Source of the DNA: an uncultured Acidobacteriota bacterium
GTDB taxonomy: Bacteria > Acidobacteriota > UBA6911
Length of the DNA stretch: 64,000 nt
Assembly (NCBI GenBank): GCA_963843575.1
Contig: CAWJKZ010000019.1
Span: forward strand, 1-64,000
Reading direction: 5' to 3'
The notes beneath the pieces are model-generated. The model did no database searches and was not told where the DNA came from. It saw nothing but the letters and a program-made list of their open reading frames with translations. Made by a program: the position numbers and the translations under genes. This document shows positions 18,187 to 37,907 of this stretch, one piece after another (position 1 is the first letter of the stretch; each line of letters opens with the position of its first letter).

Positions 18187-27169
<8,983 letters not shown>

Positions 27170-28971: not shown

Positions 28972-29260
28972 CGTCGTCACGCCTCGTGCTATGGTCTCGC
29001 GGATCGGTACAGGGGGACGCGCGTCCCCTCTACAGCGCCACACGCCCGGAACTCGGGTGACACAGGCTCCGACAAGGGGTCCTGCGGCCGATGTGCCACG
29101 ATGCCGTGGGATCGAACACACGCTCTGCAGTGTGACGCGCGCGACGCTGCAAACCCCGATGCGTCACGACGCCGTCGGGAGGCCGGTTCCGGTCATTAAA
29201 ACGAAAATCTTCTCACAAAACTGCGCAAATTGCGTCGACTTTCTTGTCGAAAGGCTACCG

Positions 29261-29310
29261 TGGAGTGCGGCGGCTCGACGCCGCTCTGGGGTCGGCGCCT
29301 GGGCGCCGAC
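29261..29310 (+). repeat. REP-like palindromic repeat, copy B
   Basis: TGGAGTGCGGCGGCTCGACGCCGCTCT followed by the hairpin GTCGGCGCC-TG-GGCGCCGAC; same bipartite layout as copy A. Confidence 0.7.
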
Positions 29311-29365
29311 CTTTCGCAGCCGCCAGCCAATCAATCCTCGACAGCGGTGTCCAGGCACCGCCGGA

Positions 29366-30760
29366 TCACTTCCAGTGGGTGGCGATGTACTCCTCGGTCT
29401 CCGGGAGGCCGCCCTGCATGATGAGGTAGCCGTTGTGGGGCTCGCGGGCCGTGATCTCGGAGGAGATCGGGTGGCGCATCATGCGCATCACCTCGGCGTG
29501 CTCGCCCGTGTGCCCCAGGACCCACGACAGCTTCATCAGCGCTGTCTCGGGGAGCATGTTTTCGAGTGGCACCACCCCGATGTCCATCAGGTCGCGGCCC
29601 GTGTCGTAGACGTACATCTGGGCATATCCCCACAGCGTCTGGACGGTCATGACCACGTGTACGCCTGCGTCGATGGCCCGTTTGAGCGCGGGGTACAGCG
29701 GCTTGTTGACGTGACCGAGGCCCGTGCCCGCGATGACGATGCCGCGGTAGCCGCTGGCGACCAGGCTGTCAACCAGGTCGGGCCGCATTCCGGGGTAGTA
29801 GTACAGGATCGTGGTGCGGTCGTCGAAGACGGGGTCGACCCTCACCTTGCGCGTCGGGTCGCGCGGACGATAGTTCTTGCTCAGGTACTTGAAGCTGTCG
29901 CGGCTGACTACCGCCAGAGGGATGTCCCCGATGGTGCGGAAGGTGCTGCGGTAGGAGCTGTGCATCTTGCGGACGCGGGTGCCGCGATGCAGCAGCCCGT
30001 AGCGGTCCGAGGTCGGGCCGAACATGCAGATCTGCACCTCGGCGATGTCCCCGTGGGCGGCGAAGCGCACCGCGTGGATGAGGTTCAGGGCGGCGTCCGA
30101 GGAGGGACGGTCGCTCGAGCGCTGCGAGCCGACGATGACGATGGGCACCGGCGAGTCCTGGACCATGAAGGACAGGATCGCGGCGGTGTGGCCCATAGTG
30201 TCGGTGCCGTGGCCGATGACGATGCCTTCGGCGCCCGCTTCGATCTCGTCCCCGATGGCCCGCGCAAGCGCGATATACTGCTCGCAGGCCATGTTCTCGG
30301 AGAAGACGCCGAACAGTTTCCGGGTGGTGAGGTTGCAGATGTCCGCCAGCTCGGGGACCGCGCCGTACAGCTCGCCCGGAGTGAACGCGGGGATGACCGC
30401 GCCCGTGCGATAGTCCAGGCGCGAGGCGATCGTCCCTCCGGTCCCAAGCAGCGTGACCTTGGGCAGGTTGGGCCGGAGCGGGAAGTCGCGCTCCGGGATC
30501 TTGTACACCGCCACCTTGTAACCGAGTTCGACGGCGCGCGCGATCCGGGTGAAGTGGATACCGACGTTGTAGCCGTTTCTCAACTTGACGACGATGTGCT
30601 CGTCGTCGAGCGTCTCCGAGCGGGGGAGGATGATCCCTTCGAACACGCTGCCCGCGTCGTTTGTGATCCGCGCCTCGCTCCAGACGCGCAGCCCGAGCTC
30701 CTCCAGCCTGGCGCGGGCGCGTCCCCGGTATCCCTTCAGTGTGTCATCGGCCCCGGTCAT
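29366..30760 (-). CDS. gatD: Glu-tRNA(Gln) amidotransferase subunit D (asparaginase-like glutaminase)
   Basis: GatD-specific N-terminal domain (EGIILPR...IVVKLRNGYNVGI), TGGTIASRLDYRTGAV, HGTDTM, GSQRSSDRPSSDA, HRGTRVRKMHSS, GTGLGHV. Confidence 0.9.
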   Translation of the reverse strand: MTGADDTLKGYRGRARARLEELGLRVWSEARITNDAGSVFEGIILPRSETLDDEHIVVKLRNGYNVGIHFTRIARAVELGYKVAVYKIPERDFPLRPNLPKVTLLGTGGTIASRLDYRTGAVIPAFTPGELYGAVPELADICNLTTRKLFGVFSENMACEQYIALARAIGDEIEAGAEGIVIGHGTDTMGHTAAILSFMVQDSPVPIVIVGSQRSSDRPSSDAALNLIHAVRFAAHGDIAEVQICMFGPTSDRYGLLHRGTRVRKMHSSYRSTFRTIGDIPLAVVSRDSFKYLSKNYRPRDPTRKVRVDPVFDDRTTILYYYPGMRPDLVDSLVASGYRGIVIAGTGLGHVNKPLYPALKRAIDAGVHVVMTVQTLWGYAQMYVYDTGRDLMDIGVVPLENMLPETALMKLSWVLGHTGEHAEVMRMMRHPISSEITAREPHNGYLIMQGGLPETEEYIATHWK

Positions 30761-32720
30761 TGCCCCCTCCAATCGCCAACCACGCCGCGGCCGCGACCTC
30801 GCGAGCCTCTATCCTGCCCCGCAGGGCCGCCATGGCGTCCCCGACGGCGATCCGGAGGACGCGCCGGGGATCGGTGCTGTACGCGCGGGCGCGGGCGGAC
30901 GCCACGACGGCGGGAATCGTCTCGCGCCAGCCGAGCGGTGCGCCGTCGAGCCCCTGCCGCGCGATTACCGAGTCGACGGTCGAGCCGGCATGCGCCGCGA
31001 GGGTCCGGACCACGGATTCCCAAGCCTGCCACAGCACCGGCCTCTCCCGGGTCGCCCGGAACCACTCCACCCAACGCTCAAACGGGATCGCGTCGACCTG
31101 CACCCCCGCCCGCCTGAGGTAGACCAGCCTTTCCCCGAAAAGGTAGCACGCCCGTTTCAAGTCGGCGCCGGCTTCCCGCACCAGGCGGTCGACCGTCGAT
31201 GCCCCGCCGCGGCGGATCAGGAAGTGGATGACCGGAGTGGCCACCCCGGCGCCCGAGTAACGGGCCTCGCGCTCCCAGGGGCGTTCGGGGAGGCCCGCCC
31301 GCAGCCGCTCGACACGCTCGCGTGCGACGCGGGTCGGGGGCGAGTCGGTGTCGGGATACATCCGGTCGGGTCCTGGGAGGATGCGCTCGAAATCGGTGGA
31401 CCCGTCGGCGAACGGCTGACGGGTTTCGTTCGGCACGCCCTGGAGGGCGTCGACGTAGCGCAACCGGACCTCCTCGGCGGCCGTGACGGTGTCCTCCGAA
31501 GGGCCCCAGACCACCACCAGGGCATCGTCCGGGGTGCAGTGCAGTCTCCCGCGCAGTTTGCGGAGCTCCTGCAGCGAGCCCCGGTAATCTGGCCATTTCT
31601 CGCTGTGCAGCAGGATGGGTCGCTGGTCGAGGCCGGCGATGACGCGCACGCGCCCCGCCAGCTCGGAGGCAAAGGACGCATCGGGTTGGGTCGGCCAGCC
31701 AAGCGTCCCGGCGAGCCCCCTGAGCCGCACGGCGCGCACGCAGAATGGGCCCCCACCCAGTTCGAAGCCGGGCCGGCGCCTCTGCTCCTTGACCCAGGCC
31801 TCCCAATGCTCGCGCCGCAGGAGCTGGTAATCGGAAGCGGTGAAAAGATCGGTCACGTCGGCGCTCTCGATCCCGATCGCCTCGGGCGAGCCCATCCCGC
31901 GGCGCAGGAGTTCGTCGCGCAGACGGAGCAGGTTGACCTGCCGCACGGCCTCCCCGTGCACCAGGAGCCGCGCCCAGCCCGCCTGCGGCACCCCCTTGAT
32001 CTCGACGCGCCGCCCGCCGCGCACCGAGACGTTGACGTCCTGTCGTGAAGCGCCGAGGCCGACGCGGACGTGCTCGGTCGAACGGCAGACCCGCCCGACG
32101 AGCAGTATGGCTTCCTCGACTTCCTCCGGCGTTCGCAGGTCGGGGCCGGTCACGGTCTCGATCAGGGGCATCCCCAGGCGGTCGGTGCGCCACACGATGA
32201 GGTGCCCCTGGTCGGAGACCTCGCGGCAGGAATCCTCCTCCACGCTTACCTGGGTGACCGAGAGGTCGCGGCCCCGGAAGGGAAGCCTGCCGTTGACCCC
32301 GACGATGGCGGTGCGCTGAAAACCGGTCGGGATCGAGCCGTCGAGGTACTGTTTGCGGGCGATGTGCACCTCGTCGACGATGTCGCAACCGAGCATGAGG
32401 CACTGCTCGATGGCGATGTCGACGGCCTCCTGGTTCACGAGAAAAGGCGGCGTGTCGTCCATTTCGTACGTGCAGACGTTCGACTCGTGCAGGAGGTAGA
32501 TGATGTTCTTCCGGGTCTTGAACTCCATCAGGGCGGTGCCGTCGTACTCCCCCAGCTCCGAGAGCGTGGGGCGCATGTGGCGCAGCACCGCGCCGTCGTG
32601 CGTCTCCGTGTACATCCCGGCCGGGCAGCGGCAGAACATCTTCGTCGCCGTCAGGAGCTGCTGGTGCACCTCCAGCCCCGCCATCAGCCCGACTTCCGCG
32701 TAGTCGATCGAGGAGTGCAA
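30744..32720 (-). CDS. gatE: Glu-tRNA(Gln) amidotransferase subunit E
   Basis: GLEVHQQL, KMFCRCP, RPTLSELGEYD, DGSIPTGFQRT, EEDSCR, DRLGMPLIE, RQDVNVS, VEIKGV, a long central insertion, PNETR...PGPDRMYPDTD. TTG start 7 nt after GGAGGG. Confidence 0.9.
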   Translation of the reverse strand: MHSSIDYAEVGLMAGLEVHQQLLTATKMFCRCPAGMYTETHDGAVLRHMRPTLSELGEYDGTALMEFKTRKNIIYLLHESNVCTYEMDDTPPFLVNQEAVDIAIEQCLMLGCDIVDEVHIARKQYLDGSIPTGFQRTAIVGVNGRLPFRGRDLSVTQVSVEEDSCREVSDQGHLIVWRTDRLGMPLIETVTGPDLRTPEEVEEAILLVGRVCRSTEHVRVGLGASRQDVNVSVRGGRRVEIKGVPQAGWARLLVHGEAVRQVNLLRLRDELLRRGMGSPEAIGIESADVTDLFTASDYQLLRREHWEAWVKEQRRRPGFELGGGPFCVRAVRLRGLAGTLGWPTQPDASFASELAGRVRVIAGLDQRPILLHSEKWPDYRGSLQELRKLRGRLHCTPDDALVVVWGPSEDTVTAAEEVRLRYVDALQGVPNETRQPFADGSTDFERILPGPDRMYPDTDSPPTRVARERVERLRAGLPERPWEREARYSGAGVATPVIHFLIRRGGASTVDRLVREAGADLKRACYLFGERLVYLRRAGVQVDAIPFERWVEWFRATRERPVLWQAWESVVRTLAAHAGSTVDSVIARQGLDGAPLGWRETIPAVVASARARAYSTDPRRVLRIAVGDAMAALRGRIEAREVAAAAWLAIGGGNDRGR

Positions 32721-32774
32721 TTCGGTGCCCTCCGGCGCCCCCGGCAGCGGCGCGTGCAAGACATGGATGCTATC

Positions 32775-32837
32775 AGACGGAAGGCAAAAGACGGAAGCCG
32801 GAAGACGGAAGCCGGAAGACGAAGGCGGAAGACAGAA
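32775..32837 (+). repeat. tandem heptamer tract AG(A/C)CGGA, about 9 units
   Basis: agacgga aggcaaa agacgga agccgga agacgga agccgga agacga aggcgga agacaga in a divergent intergenic region; TATAAT at 32844-32849. Confidence 0.75.
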
Positions 32838-32890
32838 GGGGGATATAATGGCGGCGCAGCCAAACGGTATCAGGATCGATGGGAGGGACA

Positions 32891-33820
32891 ATGAGACGTC
32901 GTGAATTCTTGACCCGCGTGGGCGCGGGTGCTGCAACGGTGGTTATGGCCAATGCCGGCGTCGAGGACGGCGCGGCGCAGGGCGCGGCCGGTGACAAGCG
33001 GAGCCGCATCGCCGTGTCGACCTGGAGCCTGCACAACTATTTCGAGTCGACCCGCGAGAGCGAATTCAAGCTCCCGGGCCGCATGATTTCGCTGCTCGAA
33101 TTCCCGGAGATGATCGCCGACCGCTACAAGGTCCACAACATCGAGGCGTGCGTGCCGCACTTCGCCTCGGCTGAGCCGGGCTACCTGAAGGAGTTCAAGG
33201 CTCGCCTCGCGAAAGCGCGCACGCAGCTGGTGAACATGCCGGTCGACATCGACGAGATCTCGACCGAGGGGGGCTTGTCGGATCCCGACGAGAGGATCCG
33301 CGGCAACGCGGTCAAGGGCTCGAAGAAGTGGATCGACGTCGCGGCCGTTGTGGGCTCGAAGGCCGTCCGGTGCGATCCGGGGAAGTTCGACCCGAAGAAG
33401 CCCGGCCCGACCGTGACCTCCTACCGGCAGCTCTCGGAGTACGGACGGTCCAAGGGCGTGCACGTCATCATCGAGAATCACGGCGGGGTGGGGTCGGAGC
33501 ACCCCGAGGACCTCGTCCAGCTGTTTACCGCCGTGGGCGGCGCGCACGTCGGTGCGCTCCCCGATTTCTTCAACTTCGCCAACGAGACCGTCCGGATGAA
33601 AGGGCTCGAAATGCTGTTCCCCTACGCGCGGGTCGTGTGCCACGCCAAGGGGATGGAATTCGACGCGGCGGGTCAGGAGAAACAGTACAACTTCGGCAAG
33701 TGCATGGAGATTGCCAAGAAGGCGGGATTCAAGGGGATCTACTCGATCGAGTACGAAGGCCCCGGGGACCCTTACGACGGCTGCCAGAAGGTGCTGAACA
33801 ACCTGCTGAAGTACCTCTGA
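32891..33820 (+). CDS. Tat-exported sugar phosphate isomerase/epimerase (xylose-isomerase-like TIM barrel)
   Basis: MRRREFL signal; IIENHGG, LPDFFNF, CHAKG, YSIEYEG. Confidence 0.85.
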   Translation: MRRREFLTRVGAGAATVVMANAGVEDGAAQGAAGDKRSRIAVSTWSLHNYFESTRESEFKLPGRMISLLEFPEMIADRYKVHNIEACVPHFASAEPGYLKEFKARLAKARTQLVNMPVDIDEISTEGGLSDPDERIRGNAVKGSKKWIDVAAVVGSKAVRCDPGKFDPKKPGPTVTSYRQLSEYGRSKGVHVIIENHGGVGSEHPEDLVQLFTAVGGAHVGALPDFFNFANETVRMKGLEMLFPYARVVCHAKGMEFDAAGQEKQYNFGKCMEIAKKAGFKGIYSIEYEGPGDPYDGCQKVLNNLLKYL

Positions 33821-33863: not shown

Positions 33864-35195
33864 CTAGGTCCTGGTCTGCAGTTTTTCCGCATCCCAGAAA
33901 ATGCGCTGCTTCTGGCGGTACGAGGTGTTCGCCATGTGGCAGGCTACGGCGGTGCCGCACCCGAAATCGACGTTTTCGACCGGCTGATTGCGAGTCCCGA
34001 TGCAGGAGAAGAAGTTGCGGAAGTGGTCCTCCGTGCCCTCGGGGGTCTGCTTGATGGTCTCCTTCTGGCGCTGCCGCTGCTGCTTGGCCGTCCCGATGTC
34101 CGCCAGAGGGTCGTTCTTGTGAGCTTCCATGAAGGGGGTCTTGGTGTCCTTGGGCCAGGACTCGAGCGGGTACGAGTATTCCTCGATCGGGTTGTAGGGT
34201 ATGAGGGTGGCGCTCCACTCCAGGAGCTCCACGGTCCCCTTGTCGCCCATGAAGCGCACGATCTCGCCCCCCTCGAAGTTCGACACCAGGTTGGCGCTGA
34301 CCTGCACCTGGAACTTGCCGTAGTCGTAGAGTGTGTTGTGGATGTCGGGCACCTCCCGGTCCCCCTTCCACTTGTAGATCCCGCCGTTCGACACGGCGCT
34401 GACCGGGAATTGCACGCCAAGGACGTGGTGCACGCGCGACAGCAGGTGCACGTATTCATCACCGGCGATTCCGGTGCCGTAGTCCCACCAATTGCGGAAC
34501 TGGAAGAAGCGGGCGGCGTCGAACGGCCGTTTGGGGGCATTCCCGAGATACCGTTCCCAGTCGATGGTCTTGGGTGAAGCGTCGGGTGGAACCGGGTAGC
34601 GCCACGCGCCGATCGCGTTGGGCCGGTAGATCGAGCACTGCACCATGAAGACGTCGCCGATGAGTCCCTTCGATACCCACTCTCTCGCCTTGTGCGTCGA
34701 TACCATGCTCAGGCTCTGGCTCCCCACCTGGACGAGGCGGCCGGTCTGCTTGGAGACGCGCACCATCTCCAAGGCTTCGGGAATCGTGTGGGCCATCGGC
34801 TTTTCACAATACACGTCCTTCCCGGCTTTCATCGCGGCGATCGCAATCGGAGCGTGCCAGTGGTCGGCAGTGGCGATGACGACCGCATCGATATCCTTCC
34901 TGGAGATGACTTCGTTGTAGTCCCGCGTCACGGGGGTGTTCGCCTGGATCTCCTGGGCGCGCCTGAAGTGGCCGTCATAGAGGTCGCAGACGACGGCAAC
35001 CTTGCCGCCCACGTTGAGCACGTACTGCATGAGTTCGAGCCCGCGGATCCCTGCGCCCACGATGCCGACGGTCACCGGTTTGTCGGCGGGGGCGCCCGTC
35101 CCTGCGGGTGCCGACGACAGGGCAGCTCCCGCGATGGTCGCCCCGGCCAGCGATTGCCCGATGAATCTCCGGCGGGTGATGTGCACTTCCGACAT
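33864..35195 (-). CDS. Tat-exported Gfo/Idh/MocA family oxidoreductase
   Basis: TRRRFI signal; VGIVGAGIRG, IATADHWH, KDVYCEKPM. Confidence 0.9.
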   Translation of the reverse strand: MSEVHITRRRFIGQSLAGATIAGAALSSAPAGTGAPADKPVTVGIVGAGIRGLELMQYVLNVGGKVAVVCDLYDGHFRRAQEIQANTPVTRDYNEVISRKDIDAVVIATADHWHAPIAIAAMKAGKDVYCEKPMAHTIPEALEMVRVSKQTGRLVQVGSQSLSMVSTHKAREWVSKGLIGDVFMVQCSIYRPNAIGAWRYPVPPDASPKTIDWERYLGNAPKRPFDAARFFQFRNWWDYGTGIAGDEYVHLLSRVHHVLGVQFPVSAVSNGGIYKWKGDREVPDIHNTLYDYGKFQVQVSANLVSNFEGGEIVRFMGDKGTVELLEWSATLIPYNPIEEYSYPLESWPKDTKTPFMEAHKNDPLADIGTAKQQRQRQKETIKQTPEGTEDHFRNFFSCIGTRNQPVENVDFGCGTAVACHMANTSYRQKQRIFWDAEKLQTRT

Positions 35196-35381
35196 AGCGT
35201 TCCTCCTACCTTGGTTTATCCTGCAGTTTCGCTGCGATTGCCGGGCGATCTTACTACGATTTACGTCGGGGGAACAATTTACGCCCGGGGGCCTCTATTG
35301 AAGCATGGCACAGACCGCGGCCCCGCCGTCGAGCGCGGGGCGCGTCTGCCAACCGCCCGAAGGATCATCGAGGGATGCGCC

Positions 35382-37801
35382 ATGGAACTGTTCTGGAGGG
35401 ACGTCCGTTACGCGTTGCGCACCTTGGCCGGAAGCCCGTCGTTCACCGCGGTCGCAGTCTTCGCGCTCGCGCTGGGCATCGGCGCCAACAGCGCGGTCTT
35501 CAGCGTCGTCGACGCGGTCCTGCTCAGGCCGCTCCCTTACCCGGAGCCCGCCCGCCTGGTGCAGATCTGGGGCTCGAACCCTGCGCGCAACATCCCCTTT
35601 CACAATGTGTGGTACGCCGATGCGTGCGAGTGGCGGAAGCAGAGCCGCTCGTTCGAGTCCATGTCGGCCGCTGCCTCCGGCTCGAAAAGCCTGGTCCTGG
35701 GCAGTGAGCCGGAGAAGATCCCGTCGCTCGCGGTAAACGCCGTCTTTTTCGACATGCTGGGGGCGCGCTTTCAGGGCGGCCGCGGGTTTATGCCCGGGGA
35801 AGACGTCCCGGGCGCCCCACGGGCGGCCGTCATCTCGCACGAGTTGTGGAAGCGTCGTTTAGCCTCCGATCCCGCCGTTGTCGGCAGTACTCTCCTGCTC
35901 GACGGTCAGGGTTACACCGTCACGGGCGTGCTGACCCCCGGTTTTTCTCTGGCCGGCCGCACGATCGACGTCTATACGCCGCTGGCGTTGAGCGAGGCGC
36001 GCGAACAGCAGGGACCTGGGAGCACCGTCACGGTCTTCGCCCGTCTGAAGCGCGACGCCACGGTGCGGCAGGCGCAGGCGGAGATGGACACGATCGGGGG
36101 CCGGCTGGCGGCATTTCGCGGCAGCCTAGGGACGGTGCCGCGCGTGTGGGGCCTCCGAGATTTCATCGTGCGGGATCTGCGGCTAAGCCTGGTGATCCTG
36201 TCTGCTGCGGTCGCCCTCGTTCTGCTGATCGCCTGCGTGAACGTCGCCAGCCTGATGCTCGCGCGCGCCGGGGAGCGGCAGAAGGAGATGGCGCTGCGTA
36301 CGGCCCTCGGGCAACCCGGGGCCGCGTCCTGGCCCAGTTGCTGACCGAGAGCGGCCTGCTCGGGCTCGCCTCCGGCGCGGTGGGGGTGGTGCTGGCCTAC
36401 TGGGGCGTCCGGCTTCTGATCCGGGTCATCCCGGACAGGTACCCGCTGCTTTCCGACGCCGCCATCGATCTTCCCGTGCTCGCCTTTACCACCGGTCTGT
36501 CGGTCGCCACCGGGCTGCTGTTCGGGCTGGCGCCCGCGCTCGCCTTGTCGCGGGAGGGCGTGCTCTGCAGCGCGCTCAAGGAGGGGGGCCGGAGTTCGGG
36601 CGAGACGATCGCGCGCGCCAAGCTACGCTCGGCGCTCATCGTCGTGGAGGTCGCCCTGGCGCTGGTTCTGATGATCGGCGCGGCGTTGATGGTTCGCAGC
36701 TTCGTCCGGCTGAACCGCGTCGATCCGGGCTTCAACTCCCGCGATGTGCTGACGGCAAGCATCAGCCTGCCGGCGTCCCGGTACGACAAGCCCGGGCAGC
36801 GCGTGGATTTTTTTCGCCGGTTGATCGAGAAGCTCGATTCCATGCCAGGTGTCGTCACGTCGGGCGTCGTTAGCGCGCTCCCGCTAACGAACTACAACAC
36901 CGGGACCGCCCTGTTCGTGGAAGGGAAACCCATCCCGCCACCGGCCGACGCCCCCATCGTCTGGTTCCGTTCGGCCAGCACCGGCTATTTCAAGGCCATG
37001 GACATCCCGCTGCGTCGTGGCCGCCTCTTCGCCGACCAGGATGAGGACCGGCCCGTGGCGGTAGTCAACGAGACCCTGGCGAAGCGCTTCTGGCCGGGGG
37101 AAGATCCCGTCGGGAAACGCTTCACCAACGGTTATCCGCCGCCCAATCAGCCCATCCAGTGGGCGACCGTGATCGGAGTGGTCGGCGACCTCCGCCACAA
37201 GGGGCTGAACCAGGAACCGGACGCCGAACTGTTCTGGCCCTACCGGATGCTCGCGCCGGCGGGCCTCAACCTGACCGTGCGTACCAGCCTCTCCCCGATG
37301 CAGGCCGCCCCCACGCTGCGCCGGGCCGTCGCCGAGATCGACCGGGACCAGCCGGTCTCGCAGATTCTCGGCATGGAGCAGGTCGTGGCGAACTCGATCG
37401 CCCCCCAGAGACTTTCGGTGACGCTGATCGGGGTCGTTCGCCGTCGCTGGCCCTGATCCTCGCGACCCTGGGGATCTACGGCGTGATCTCCTTCGGGGTG
37501 GCGCGCCGGACCCGCGAAATAGGAGTCCGGCTGGCGCTGGGCGCGCTGGGCGGGGACGTGGTTCGGATGGTCGTGCGGGAGGCCCTGATACTGGCCGGGA
37601 CCGGCCTGCTGATCGGCCTGCTCGCCGCCCTGGCCTTGACCCGCTTTCATCGCCAGCCTGCTCTTCCGCGTCAGTGCGACCGACCCGGTGATGATTGCGG
37701 CGGTGTGCGTCCTCCTGGCGGCCGTCGCGGCGCTCGCCAGCTACATACCGGCGCGTCGTGCCGCTGCAATCGATCCGATCGAGGCGCTGCGCTGCGAGTG
37801 A
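35382..37801 (+). CDS. ADOP-type (acidobacterial duplicated orphan) ABC permease, MacB/FtsX family, frameshifted at about 36310, 37435 and 37647
   Basis: DVRYALRTL, ALALGIGANSAVFSVV, LLIACVNVASL, QLLTES, GIYGVISF, C-terminal YIPARRAAAIDPIEALRCE, spread over successive frames with no internal stops. Confidence 0.8.
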
Positions 37802-37907
37802 CGGTCTTCGCGGCGGAATGCCGGGCGCGGTTCGTCACCAATGCCTTTGTTTTTGATCTGTGAGGATCCGCGTCCGAAAAAACGTCACCGAACTTACGCG
37901 ATTGGCC

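Follow-up and report, generated by a model that had tools for sequence, protein, structure and literature searches.

In archaea, GatDE is a GatD2-GatE2 transamidase that acts on Glu-tRNA(Gln) and, together with a glutamyl-tRNA synthetase (GluRS) of the non-discriminating kind in cells that have no glutaminyl-tRNA synthetase (GlnRS), constitutes the sole route to Gln-tRNA(Gln). It is called an archaeal enzyme in PMC2330236, PMC2811023, PMC8007984 and PMC9499178, as an earlier note on the DNA considered here had said. Archaeal GatDE reads the A1-U72 pair of tRNA(Gln); the kinase site of GatE has His15, Glu157 and Glu184 as Mg ligands in M. thermautotrophicus, and the amidase site of GatD has a Thr nucleophile and a Thr-Lys-Asp triad (PMC2330236). 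Here we describe a gatE-gatD pair in a 64-kb stretch of DNA, referred to below as the window, which is the first part of a 528,906-bp contig from an uncultured Acidobacteriota bacterium of soil. Taking identity, residence and mechanism jointly, we consider it quite probable that the pair is an intact, resident operon belonging to a bacterial clade of GatDE and sharing the generic mechanism of tRNA-dependent amidotransferases.

The closest described systems are the archaeal enzymes of known structure (M. thermautotrophicus, 2D6F; P. abyssi, 1ZQ1), with which the window pair shares two full-length subunits, the same domains, the Mg ligands and the Thr, Asp and Lys motifs. It differs from them in a drifted tail motif, in its overlapping gatE-gatD operon, in belonging to a separate clade, and in a loop that reads VRVG..GAS in place of VKRG..GTI. 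The host side differs as well, being a bacterium with GlnRS and a U1-A72 tRNA(Gln), whereas archaea have A1-U72 and lack GlnRS (PMC2330236, PMC9499178); with a GlnRS of 764.7 bits and a GluRS that carries the arginine marking the discriminating type (D-type), the host is not one in which GatDE is the only glutamine route. The archaeal holoenzyme is a defined complex, and the adjacency and overlap of the window's two genes suggest that their products would pair likewise.

Bacterial GatCAB performs the same overall chemistry, and GatE and GatB are paralogues with a common cradle domain (Pfam GatB_N). GatCAB reads U1-A72, the pair that the host tRNA(Gln) carries, and GatB has a 3_10 turn and a Lys-rich tail motif (PMC2811023), both of which are lacking in the window GatE; the latter also falls below every GatB cut-off, has a GatE-specific insertion, and is partnered by GatD rather than by the amidase GatA with GatC. 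In its genomic setting the pair resembles what is described for Thermus, Deinococcus and Bdellovibrio, in which GatCAB stands beside GlnRS and asparaginyl-tRNA synthetase (AsnRS) and serves the tRNA-dependent formation of asparagine (PMC4206432); in the host, moreover, no gene for AsnA or AsnB is over cut-off. The described case differs in that its amidotransferase is GatCAB, with a second aspartyl-tRNA synthetase (AspRS) in two of those organisms (PMC4206432), whereas here it is GatDE and an archaeal-type non-discriminating AspRS is over cut-off in only 1 of 62 genomes. Finally, type I L-asparaginase (AnsA) has the asparaginase fold of the GatD core, and the window GatD scores 368.6 bits on its model (TIGR00519; subfamily cut-off 260.5); it is set apart from AnsA by a GatD_N domain, a higher score on the GatD equivalogs (493 bits) and its probable translational coupling to gatE.

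Identity and layout of the gatE-gatD pair

Both products match GatDE over their full lengths. GatD carries three Pfam domains over cut-off (PF18195 GatD_N, 50.7 bits; PF00710 Asparaginase, 181.5; PF17763 Asparaginase_C, 110.2) and reaches 493.1 bits on NF003217 (cut-off 310) and 492.3 bits on TIGR02153 (cut-off 324), and its scores on the asparaginase models, type I as well as type II, are below those on both equivalogs. Among proteins of solved structure, the GatD chains 1zq1_A and 2d6f_A are matched at 398.1 and 387 bits and asparaginases at no more than 144 bits. The motifs TGGTIASR, HGTDTM and RKMH are identical or conservatively replaced in the alignment to these two chains, and presumably contain the residues of the Thr-Lys-Asp triad.

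GatE scores 390.9 bits on TIGR00134 (cut-off 319.55) and at most 130 bits on each of six GatB models with cut-offs of at least 314, the best of them giving 129.9 against 338. It aligns along its full length with P. abyssi GatE (1zq1_C, 300.6 bits; query 4-642, chain 7-619), and the Pfam GatB_N match is stretched by the GatE insertion across residues 13-470; the insertion domain is therefore present, and it contains a 14-residue insert relative to 12 other bacterial GatE. M. thermautotrophicus GatE (2d6f_C) is matched at 285.1 bits and the GatB chains of solved structures at 87 bits or less. In the 2d6f_C alignment, H19, E161 and E188 stand opposite the Mg ligands His15, Glu157 and Glu184, and all three are invariant across 13 bacterial GatE. 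The profile search that the earlier note had proposed thus comes out in favour of the GatD and GatE equivalogs over GatB and asparaginase models, and together with the solved-structure matches and the GatE trees described below it upholds the identification of true archaeal-type GatD and GatE rather than GatB and AnsA.

The description of an overlapping, intact pair with catalytic motifs and a long GatE insertion also holds at the positions in Table 1; both genes are full length and overlap by 17 nt. The gatE frame is open over 30744-32936, homologues span only 30744-32720, and the protein collection contains a version of 671 aa as predicted by a gene caller. The gatD reading frame is open over 29366-30772 (468 aa from a TTG at 30772); its likely start is the ATG in the table, which is preceded by GGAGG within the 3' end of gatE. 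The overlap suggests that the two genes may be translationally coupled.

Table 1. Positions of the two genes and their junction in the window
Feature	Positions	Strand	Description
gatE	30744..32720	-	658 aa from TTG 32720; kinase/transamidase subunit of GatDE-type tRNA-dependent amidotransferase (predicted)
gatD	29366..30760	-	464 aa from ATG 30760; asparaginase-type glutaminase subunit (predicted)
gatE-gatD junction	30744..30770	-	GGAGG 30770-30766, gatD ATG 30760-30758, gatE stop TGA 30746-30744; read from sequence

The neighbouring genes encode an acyl-CoA dehydrogenase, a xylose-isomerase-like TIM barrel, a GFO/IDH/MocA oxidoreductase, a MacB/FtsX-type permease and an M23 peptidase. No tRNA or Rfam elements were found in the 64-kb window, and a scan of 29,000-33,100 returned no promoter-like sites and one terminator-like site against 1.7 expected. 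A few kb away from gatD, and likewise on the minus strand, is a very long open frame of 2340 aa (20147-27169).

Residence in the host and the breadth of the bacterial clade

The host assembly (6.68 Mb in 27 contigs, estimated at 88% complete with 3.28% contamination) encodes, in addition to the GlnRS mentioned above, GatA (621.5 bits) and AsnRS (473.8 bits), and its gatB lies on contig C26 (G000:C26:825-2294, minus strand) split over three reading frames, with both ends readable and highly identical to same-family GatB and the middle garbled. Because its only bacterial aspS (G000:C13:658872-660623, plus strand) and a MacB_PCD/FtsX permease in the window (34692-37863, plus strand) are also split over three frames, we interpret the interruption of gatB as probably an artefact of sequencing or assembly rather than a loss; the three split genes point to indel errors in the assembly, such that apparent pseudogenes of this genome are not trustworthy. 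Both tRNA(Gln) genes (UUG and CUG) have U1-A72 and G73, the latter being a GlnRS identity element in E. coli. There is a single bacterial GluRS gene, adjoining glnS; this adjacency of gltX and glnS (G000:C10:513591-516750) recurs in G017, G058, G018, G207 and G276 among the other genomes of the phylum looked at.

The relatives of GatE at 73-88% identity derive, where named, from Vicinamibacterales, Acidobacteria or Acidobacteriota metagenome-assembled genomes (MAGs), and the best named matches of the flanking acyl-CoA dehydrogenase are also in Acidobacteriota MAGs. The nearest relatives of the two proteins lie on contigs of equal length (68,840, 85,527 and 940,781 bp, with identities for dehydrogenase and GatE of 89/84, 80/79 and 79/77%), which to judge by these lengths are probably the same contigs. 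Two genomes of the same family, G280 and G063, carry orthologues (84% amino-acid identity to G280 for GatD, 78.5% for GatE), and there is no synteny with the same-family genomes outside gatE and gatD. In seven soil and sediment read sets, at most 0.10 of the sampled window words were present; pieces of up to 346 nt from four of these sets fall in gatD, gatE and the flanks, some of them identical to the window, and among the pieces listed none spans 29,121-29,366 or 32,720-32,880. The matching sets listed included none of RNA. We regard the pair as resident rather than chimeric because of the length of the contig, the even composition of the window, the same-family orthologues and the probable co-location of the relatives of GatE and its flank gene, and we take it to have been neither misassembled nor recently imported.

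These data agree with the earlier note on several points. The host is bacterial, as indicated by its U1-A72/G73 tRNA(Gln), GlnRS, GatA and GatB and by the Acidobacteriota matches of GatE and its flank gene; the composition of the pair is like that of its neighbours (G+C 0.70 at 30,001-32,000 and 0.63-0.71 over the whole window); and this composition, with the divergence of the same-family orthologues, supports an old acquisition. The inventory of gatCAB, glnS, asnS and tRNA(Gln) that it had called for accordingly returned GatA, GatB, GlnRS, AsnRS and tRNA(Gln) genes with U1-A72. What does not survive is the implied rarity of the pair as a one-off import, since 62 of the 401 genomes sampled from the phylum, across many families, have a GatE that passes its cut-off (the sample includes three unpublished GatE-negative genomes, G049, G152 and G024, used only for tallies), at least 595 confirmed relatives occur in species-representative genomes, and the pair belongs to a very large, annotated bacterial clade. 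Among the 80 listed of these at least 595 matches, the Acidobacteriota are represented by Vicinamibacterales, Holophagales, Thermoanaerobaculia and Aminicenantes, and there are also Myxococcota, 'Deltaproteobacteria', Planctomycetota, Ignavibacteriota, Bacteroidota, Chlorobiota, Rhodothermota and Eisenbacteria, a few Pseudomonadota-labelled bins and one Thermoplasmatales-labelled bin. Bacterial GatE is already annotated as such by NCBI and JGI: the named entries among the 120 closest proteins listed are GatE, the exception being P0096, which NCBI calls gatB. In 63 of 84 related loci, gatD follows immediately 3' of gatE in the same orientation, and no third conserved gene beside gatED emerged from open reading frame clustering of 85 loci. 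The window pair is thus one ordinary member of a large bacterial GatDE clade, and its interest lies in the pattern of the clade and not in the locus.

For phylogenetic reconstruction, we used 117 of the 150 best 50%-identity GatE representatives (those within 590-720 aa, which excluded 33), 94 of the 96 GatE taken from loci (2 being too short) and the window GatE, rooted on same-family GatB; the trees cover GatE. All bacterium-labelled GatE form one clade, with support of 99 in FastTree (213 rows), 99 in a quick IQ-TREE run (93 rows) and 100/100 in a careful IQ-TREE run (48-row subset, 633 columns, LG+G4) whose bootstrap was not fully settled (correlation 0.985). The window GatE and that of G280 are sisters. 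The neighbour of the bacterial clade is P0159, whose 90% cluster includes a Heimdallarchaeota-labelled GatE (support 94, 94 and 100/98); it is the only Heimdall-labelled GatE in the tree, and several basal rows of bacterial type are nameless. Clusters named Lokiarchaeum, Thorarchaeota and Odinarchaeota are near the root, and the remaining representatives, with named members from Diapherotrites, Parvarchaeota, Methanofastidiosum and Thermoprotei, form a separate clade (support 99). The outgroup branch is long and the root correspondingly unsure: were it placed on the bacterial stem of the unrooted tree, the bacterial clade would be sister to all archaeal GatE, and bacterial GatE may therefore descend from LUCA, the last universal common ancestor.

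The bacterial part of the tree does not follow phyla, and the window's own GTDB family, f1, holds two GatE lineages, the G280 copy being about 79% and the G210 copy 49% identical to the window GatE. Together these observations point to spread among bacteria. The G210 GatE (L027/L115) groups with copies of Aminicenantes/Ignavibacteria type, unlike those of G000, G280 and G063 in the same family, and suggests that the gene was replaced or acquired a second time. Just one locus within the bacterial-type clade, L077, has an archaeal label; it is in a 1.4-Mb Thermoplasmatales-labelled bin that carries GlnRS (743 bits), and the archaeal label is doubtful because archaea are said to lack GlnRS (PMC9499178); the genes neighbouring the locus are uninformative as to the domain of the bin. 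The two genes at L077 (4370-9309) are in divergent orientation, with a gene for type I glutamine synthetase after gatE.

Recognition of tRNA and the company of other enzymes

A short, conserved, positively charged loop of GatE adjoins the tRNA's first base pair, at a place where bacterial GatB has a 3_10 turn (PMC2811023). In 76 GatE rows classed as other archaeal, the loop reads V-K-R-G-[LI]-G-T-I-RQD, the R being shared by 75 of them and the I by 72; in 128 rows of bacterial type it reads V-R-[T/R/V]-G-x-G-A-[A/S/T]-RQD, where the third position is T in 60, R in 44 and V in 19 and the A is present in 100 of the 128. These groups were taken from the 213-row GatE tree, and the motifs are a description of clade signatures rather than an independent test. 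The window GatE has HVRVGLGAS (aligned stretch HVRVGLGASRQD). The A1-U72 identity pair of the archaeal substrate is present in neither host tRNA(Gln) gene, both having U1-A72, and because of this an altered recognition is required if GatDE works at all; the bacterial loop signature fits such a change in first-pair recognition. We infer that the window GatDE is active and that it has been re-tuned from the archaeal A1-U72 tRNA(Gln) to a bacterial U1-A72 tRNA, and most likely the pair would encode a working tRNA-dependent amidotransferase adjusted in this way.

By homology to the archaeal enzymes, GatE would bind a mischarged aminoacyl-tRNA and phosphorylate its side-chain carboxylate with ATP and Mg2+, GatD, an asparaginase-type amidase, would free ammonia from glutamine or asparagine, and GatE would use that ammonia to amidate the activated intermediate. 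As to the substrate, Glu-tRNA(Gln) in a back-up or clean-up route has roughly an even chance; Asp-tRNA(Asn) or a dual specificity is unlikely, and a substrate of some other kind equally so.

A number of observations weigh against this reading of the pair. On the protein side, GatE passes NF003107 only narrowly (468.7 bits, cut-off 456), the Pfam GatB_Yqey tail model has no match to it at E<=0.001, and its tail motif is RGRIEA where archaea have RG[KR]xDG. On the genomic side, the canonical job is covered by the host GlnRS, GatA, GatB and AsnRS, and we compared 61 other GatE-positive genomes of the phylum and 23 carriers from other lineages in this respect. GlnRS is over cut-off in 57 of the 61 and matched in 20 of the 23, and AsnRS is found in all 61 phylum carriers. 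Where GlnRS is missing, GatB is kept in 6 of 7 carriers (G031, G047, G013, G061, G405 and G409), the seventh, G420, being a bin of unknown completeness, and where GlnRS is present it is kept in 22 of 77, although related genomes are not independent in these counts and amount to about five lineages. This retention argues that GatDE alone is not relied upon for Gln-tRNA(Gln). In addition, little Glu-tRNA(Gln) may form in the host, because its single GluRS has an Arg corresponding to T. thermophilus Arg358, a residue specific to discriminating GluRS that binds C36 (PMC3927822, PMC12088422), even though the marker fails in H. pylori (PMC3927822). The same Arg is found in the six GluRS from GatB-less carriers that cover the site.

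Overall, GatB is present in 21 of the 61 phylum carriers (absent in 40) and 7 of the 23 others, so that in most carriers GatDE is the sole amidotransferase beside the two amide synthetases. In the host genome itself GatDE is auxiliary, GlnRS, AsnRS and GatCAB genes being there as well; given these genes and a GluRS with the discriminating-type Arg, it is not needed for Gln-tRNA(Gln). Two candidate companions were set aside. A second GluRS as a source of Glu-tRNA(Gln) is not seen in the host, which has one, and G018 alone of five GatB-less genomes encodes two complete copies. An archaeal-type non-discriminating AspRS does not travel with GatDE, and the matches beyond the single genome over cut-off are a short AsnRS itself. 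This AsnRS, of about 435-440 aa, is encoded by the host (G000:C14:509407-510684) and by a further 39 genomes of the phylum. It passes the asnS cut-off (about 450-480 bits) and reaches 270-336 bits with the archaeal-type aspS model as well; a long form with about 620-650 bits is found in other families.

In 3 of 84 loci, belonging to two lineages, the 200 nt upstream of gatE contain a tRNA-Gln-type gene, which counts towards a link with glutamine, and the tRNA-Gln genes beside gatE in relatives have U1-A72. In one Holophagaceae MAG, 69 nt upstream of gatE, there is an extra tRNA(Gln)-like gene (L057:4188-4263) with anticodon CUA and one added D-loop base; it is amber-reading, and ARAGORN calls it 'Pyl'. 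The same genome has a normal tRNA-Gln(CUG) elsewhere (L128), and in the sister genome the corresponding position is occupied by an ordinary tRNA-Gln(CUG) (L054:5857-5931). In two Holophagaceae genomes (L127-L134) all tRNA(Gln) genes, CUG and UUG, have A73, compared with G73 in the window's genome.

Competing explanations and their meaning

One rival holds that the contig is chimeric or contaminated by an archaeal fragment over 29.3-32.8 kb, or that the genes are decaying relics. The frame errors in gatB, the only bacterial AspRS and the window permease, the contamination estimate, the non-syntenic flanks and the want of a read or contig bridging the junctions among the pieces listed would all fit it; however, both genes are intact and full length, their closest relatives at 73-88% identity are Acidobacteriota and not archaeal GatE, the nearest relatives of the flank gene are on contigs matching in length those with GatE's nearest relatives, the 529-kb contig has even G+C, and 61 other genomes of the phylum have the pair, all of which makes this explanation highly improbable. 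Another proposal is that bacterial GatDE is an Asp-tRNA(Asn) or dual amidotransferase that has replaced GatCAB as a tRNA-dependent route to asparagine. It draws on the absence of GatB from 40 of 61 phylum carriers, of which 6 (G207, G167, G079, G347, G018 and G065, 94-99% complete, rounded) have neither AsnA nor AsnB, whereas genomes without any amidotransferase have AsnB in 19 of 20 cases and in 18 of 18 at completeness of at least 90%. The host, too, has neither gene over cut-off; its tRNA(Asn) and tRNA(Gln) genes all have U1-A72, as do bacterial tRNA(Asn) and tRNA(Gln) in general, such that recognition of the first pair would not separate them; and retention of an amidotransferase beside GlnRS and AsnRS has the GatCAB precedent (PMC4206432). 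Yet the numbers are small and represent about three lineages, with 6/40 against 0/18 not significant, 45 of 61 GatDE genomes have AsnB-family genes and every one has AsnRS, the archaeal-type AspRS is nearly absent, and host GatA and GatB could do the job. Moreover, Asp-tRNA(Asn) is not a substrate of archaeal GatDE (PMC2330236), and the tRNA genes beside gatE are tRNA-Gln rather than tRNA-Asn. We consider this asparagine route rather unlikely.

It is also conceivable, though quite unlikely, that the chemistry of GatDE, carboxylate activation with channelled ammonia, was recruited to another aminoacyl-tRNA or tRNA-like molecule in a non-translational or non-canonical role. Nearly all carriers lack the canonical need, GatB is kept where GlnRS is missing, the GluRS of the host and of six GatB-less carriers have the discriminating-type Arg, the bacterial signature is located in the tRNA-facing loop, and a CUA-anticodon copy of a tRNA(Gln)-like gene sits beside gatE in one Holophagaceae MAG. 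Against such recruitment, the 84 loci show no further conserved gene beside gatED, the catalytic residues have all been retained, the tRNA-binding architecture appears complete, and nothing speaks positively for any particular alternative substrate. A broader scenario, in which GatDE is not a glutamine route and instead entered by an ancient exchange with an Asgard-like lineage, spread among bacteria with GlnRS and AsnRS, mostly displaced GatCAB, and with its re-tuned loop serves tRNA-dependent asparagine synthesis or the amidation of another aminoacyl-tRNA, is a tentative proposition that we find possible but somewhat improbable. The reading we prefer thus remains that of a resident operon of the bacterial GatDE clade with the generic amidotransferase mechanism.

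A full-text literature search found no paper on bacterial GatDE and only archaeal statements, the phylogeny of Sheppard and Soll (2008) being outside its coverage; the bacterial clade is annotated in databases and has not been taken up by the literature. Reviews up to 2022 state that GatDE is confined to archaea and argue from this, for its co-evolution with archaeal tRNA(Gln) and about the amidotransferases of LUCA (PMC9499178, PMC2330236). The window locus adds no more than one ordinary member to the clade. A single large bacterial clade of GatDE, in genomes of which almost all have GlnRS and AsnRS and most have lost GatCAB, alters the archaea-only picture, and it makes testable what role an amidotransferase plays in a cell that does not need such an enzyme for translation.

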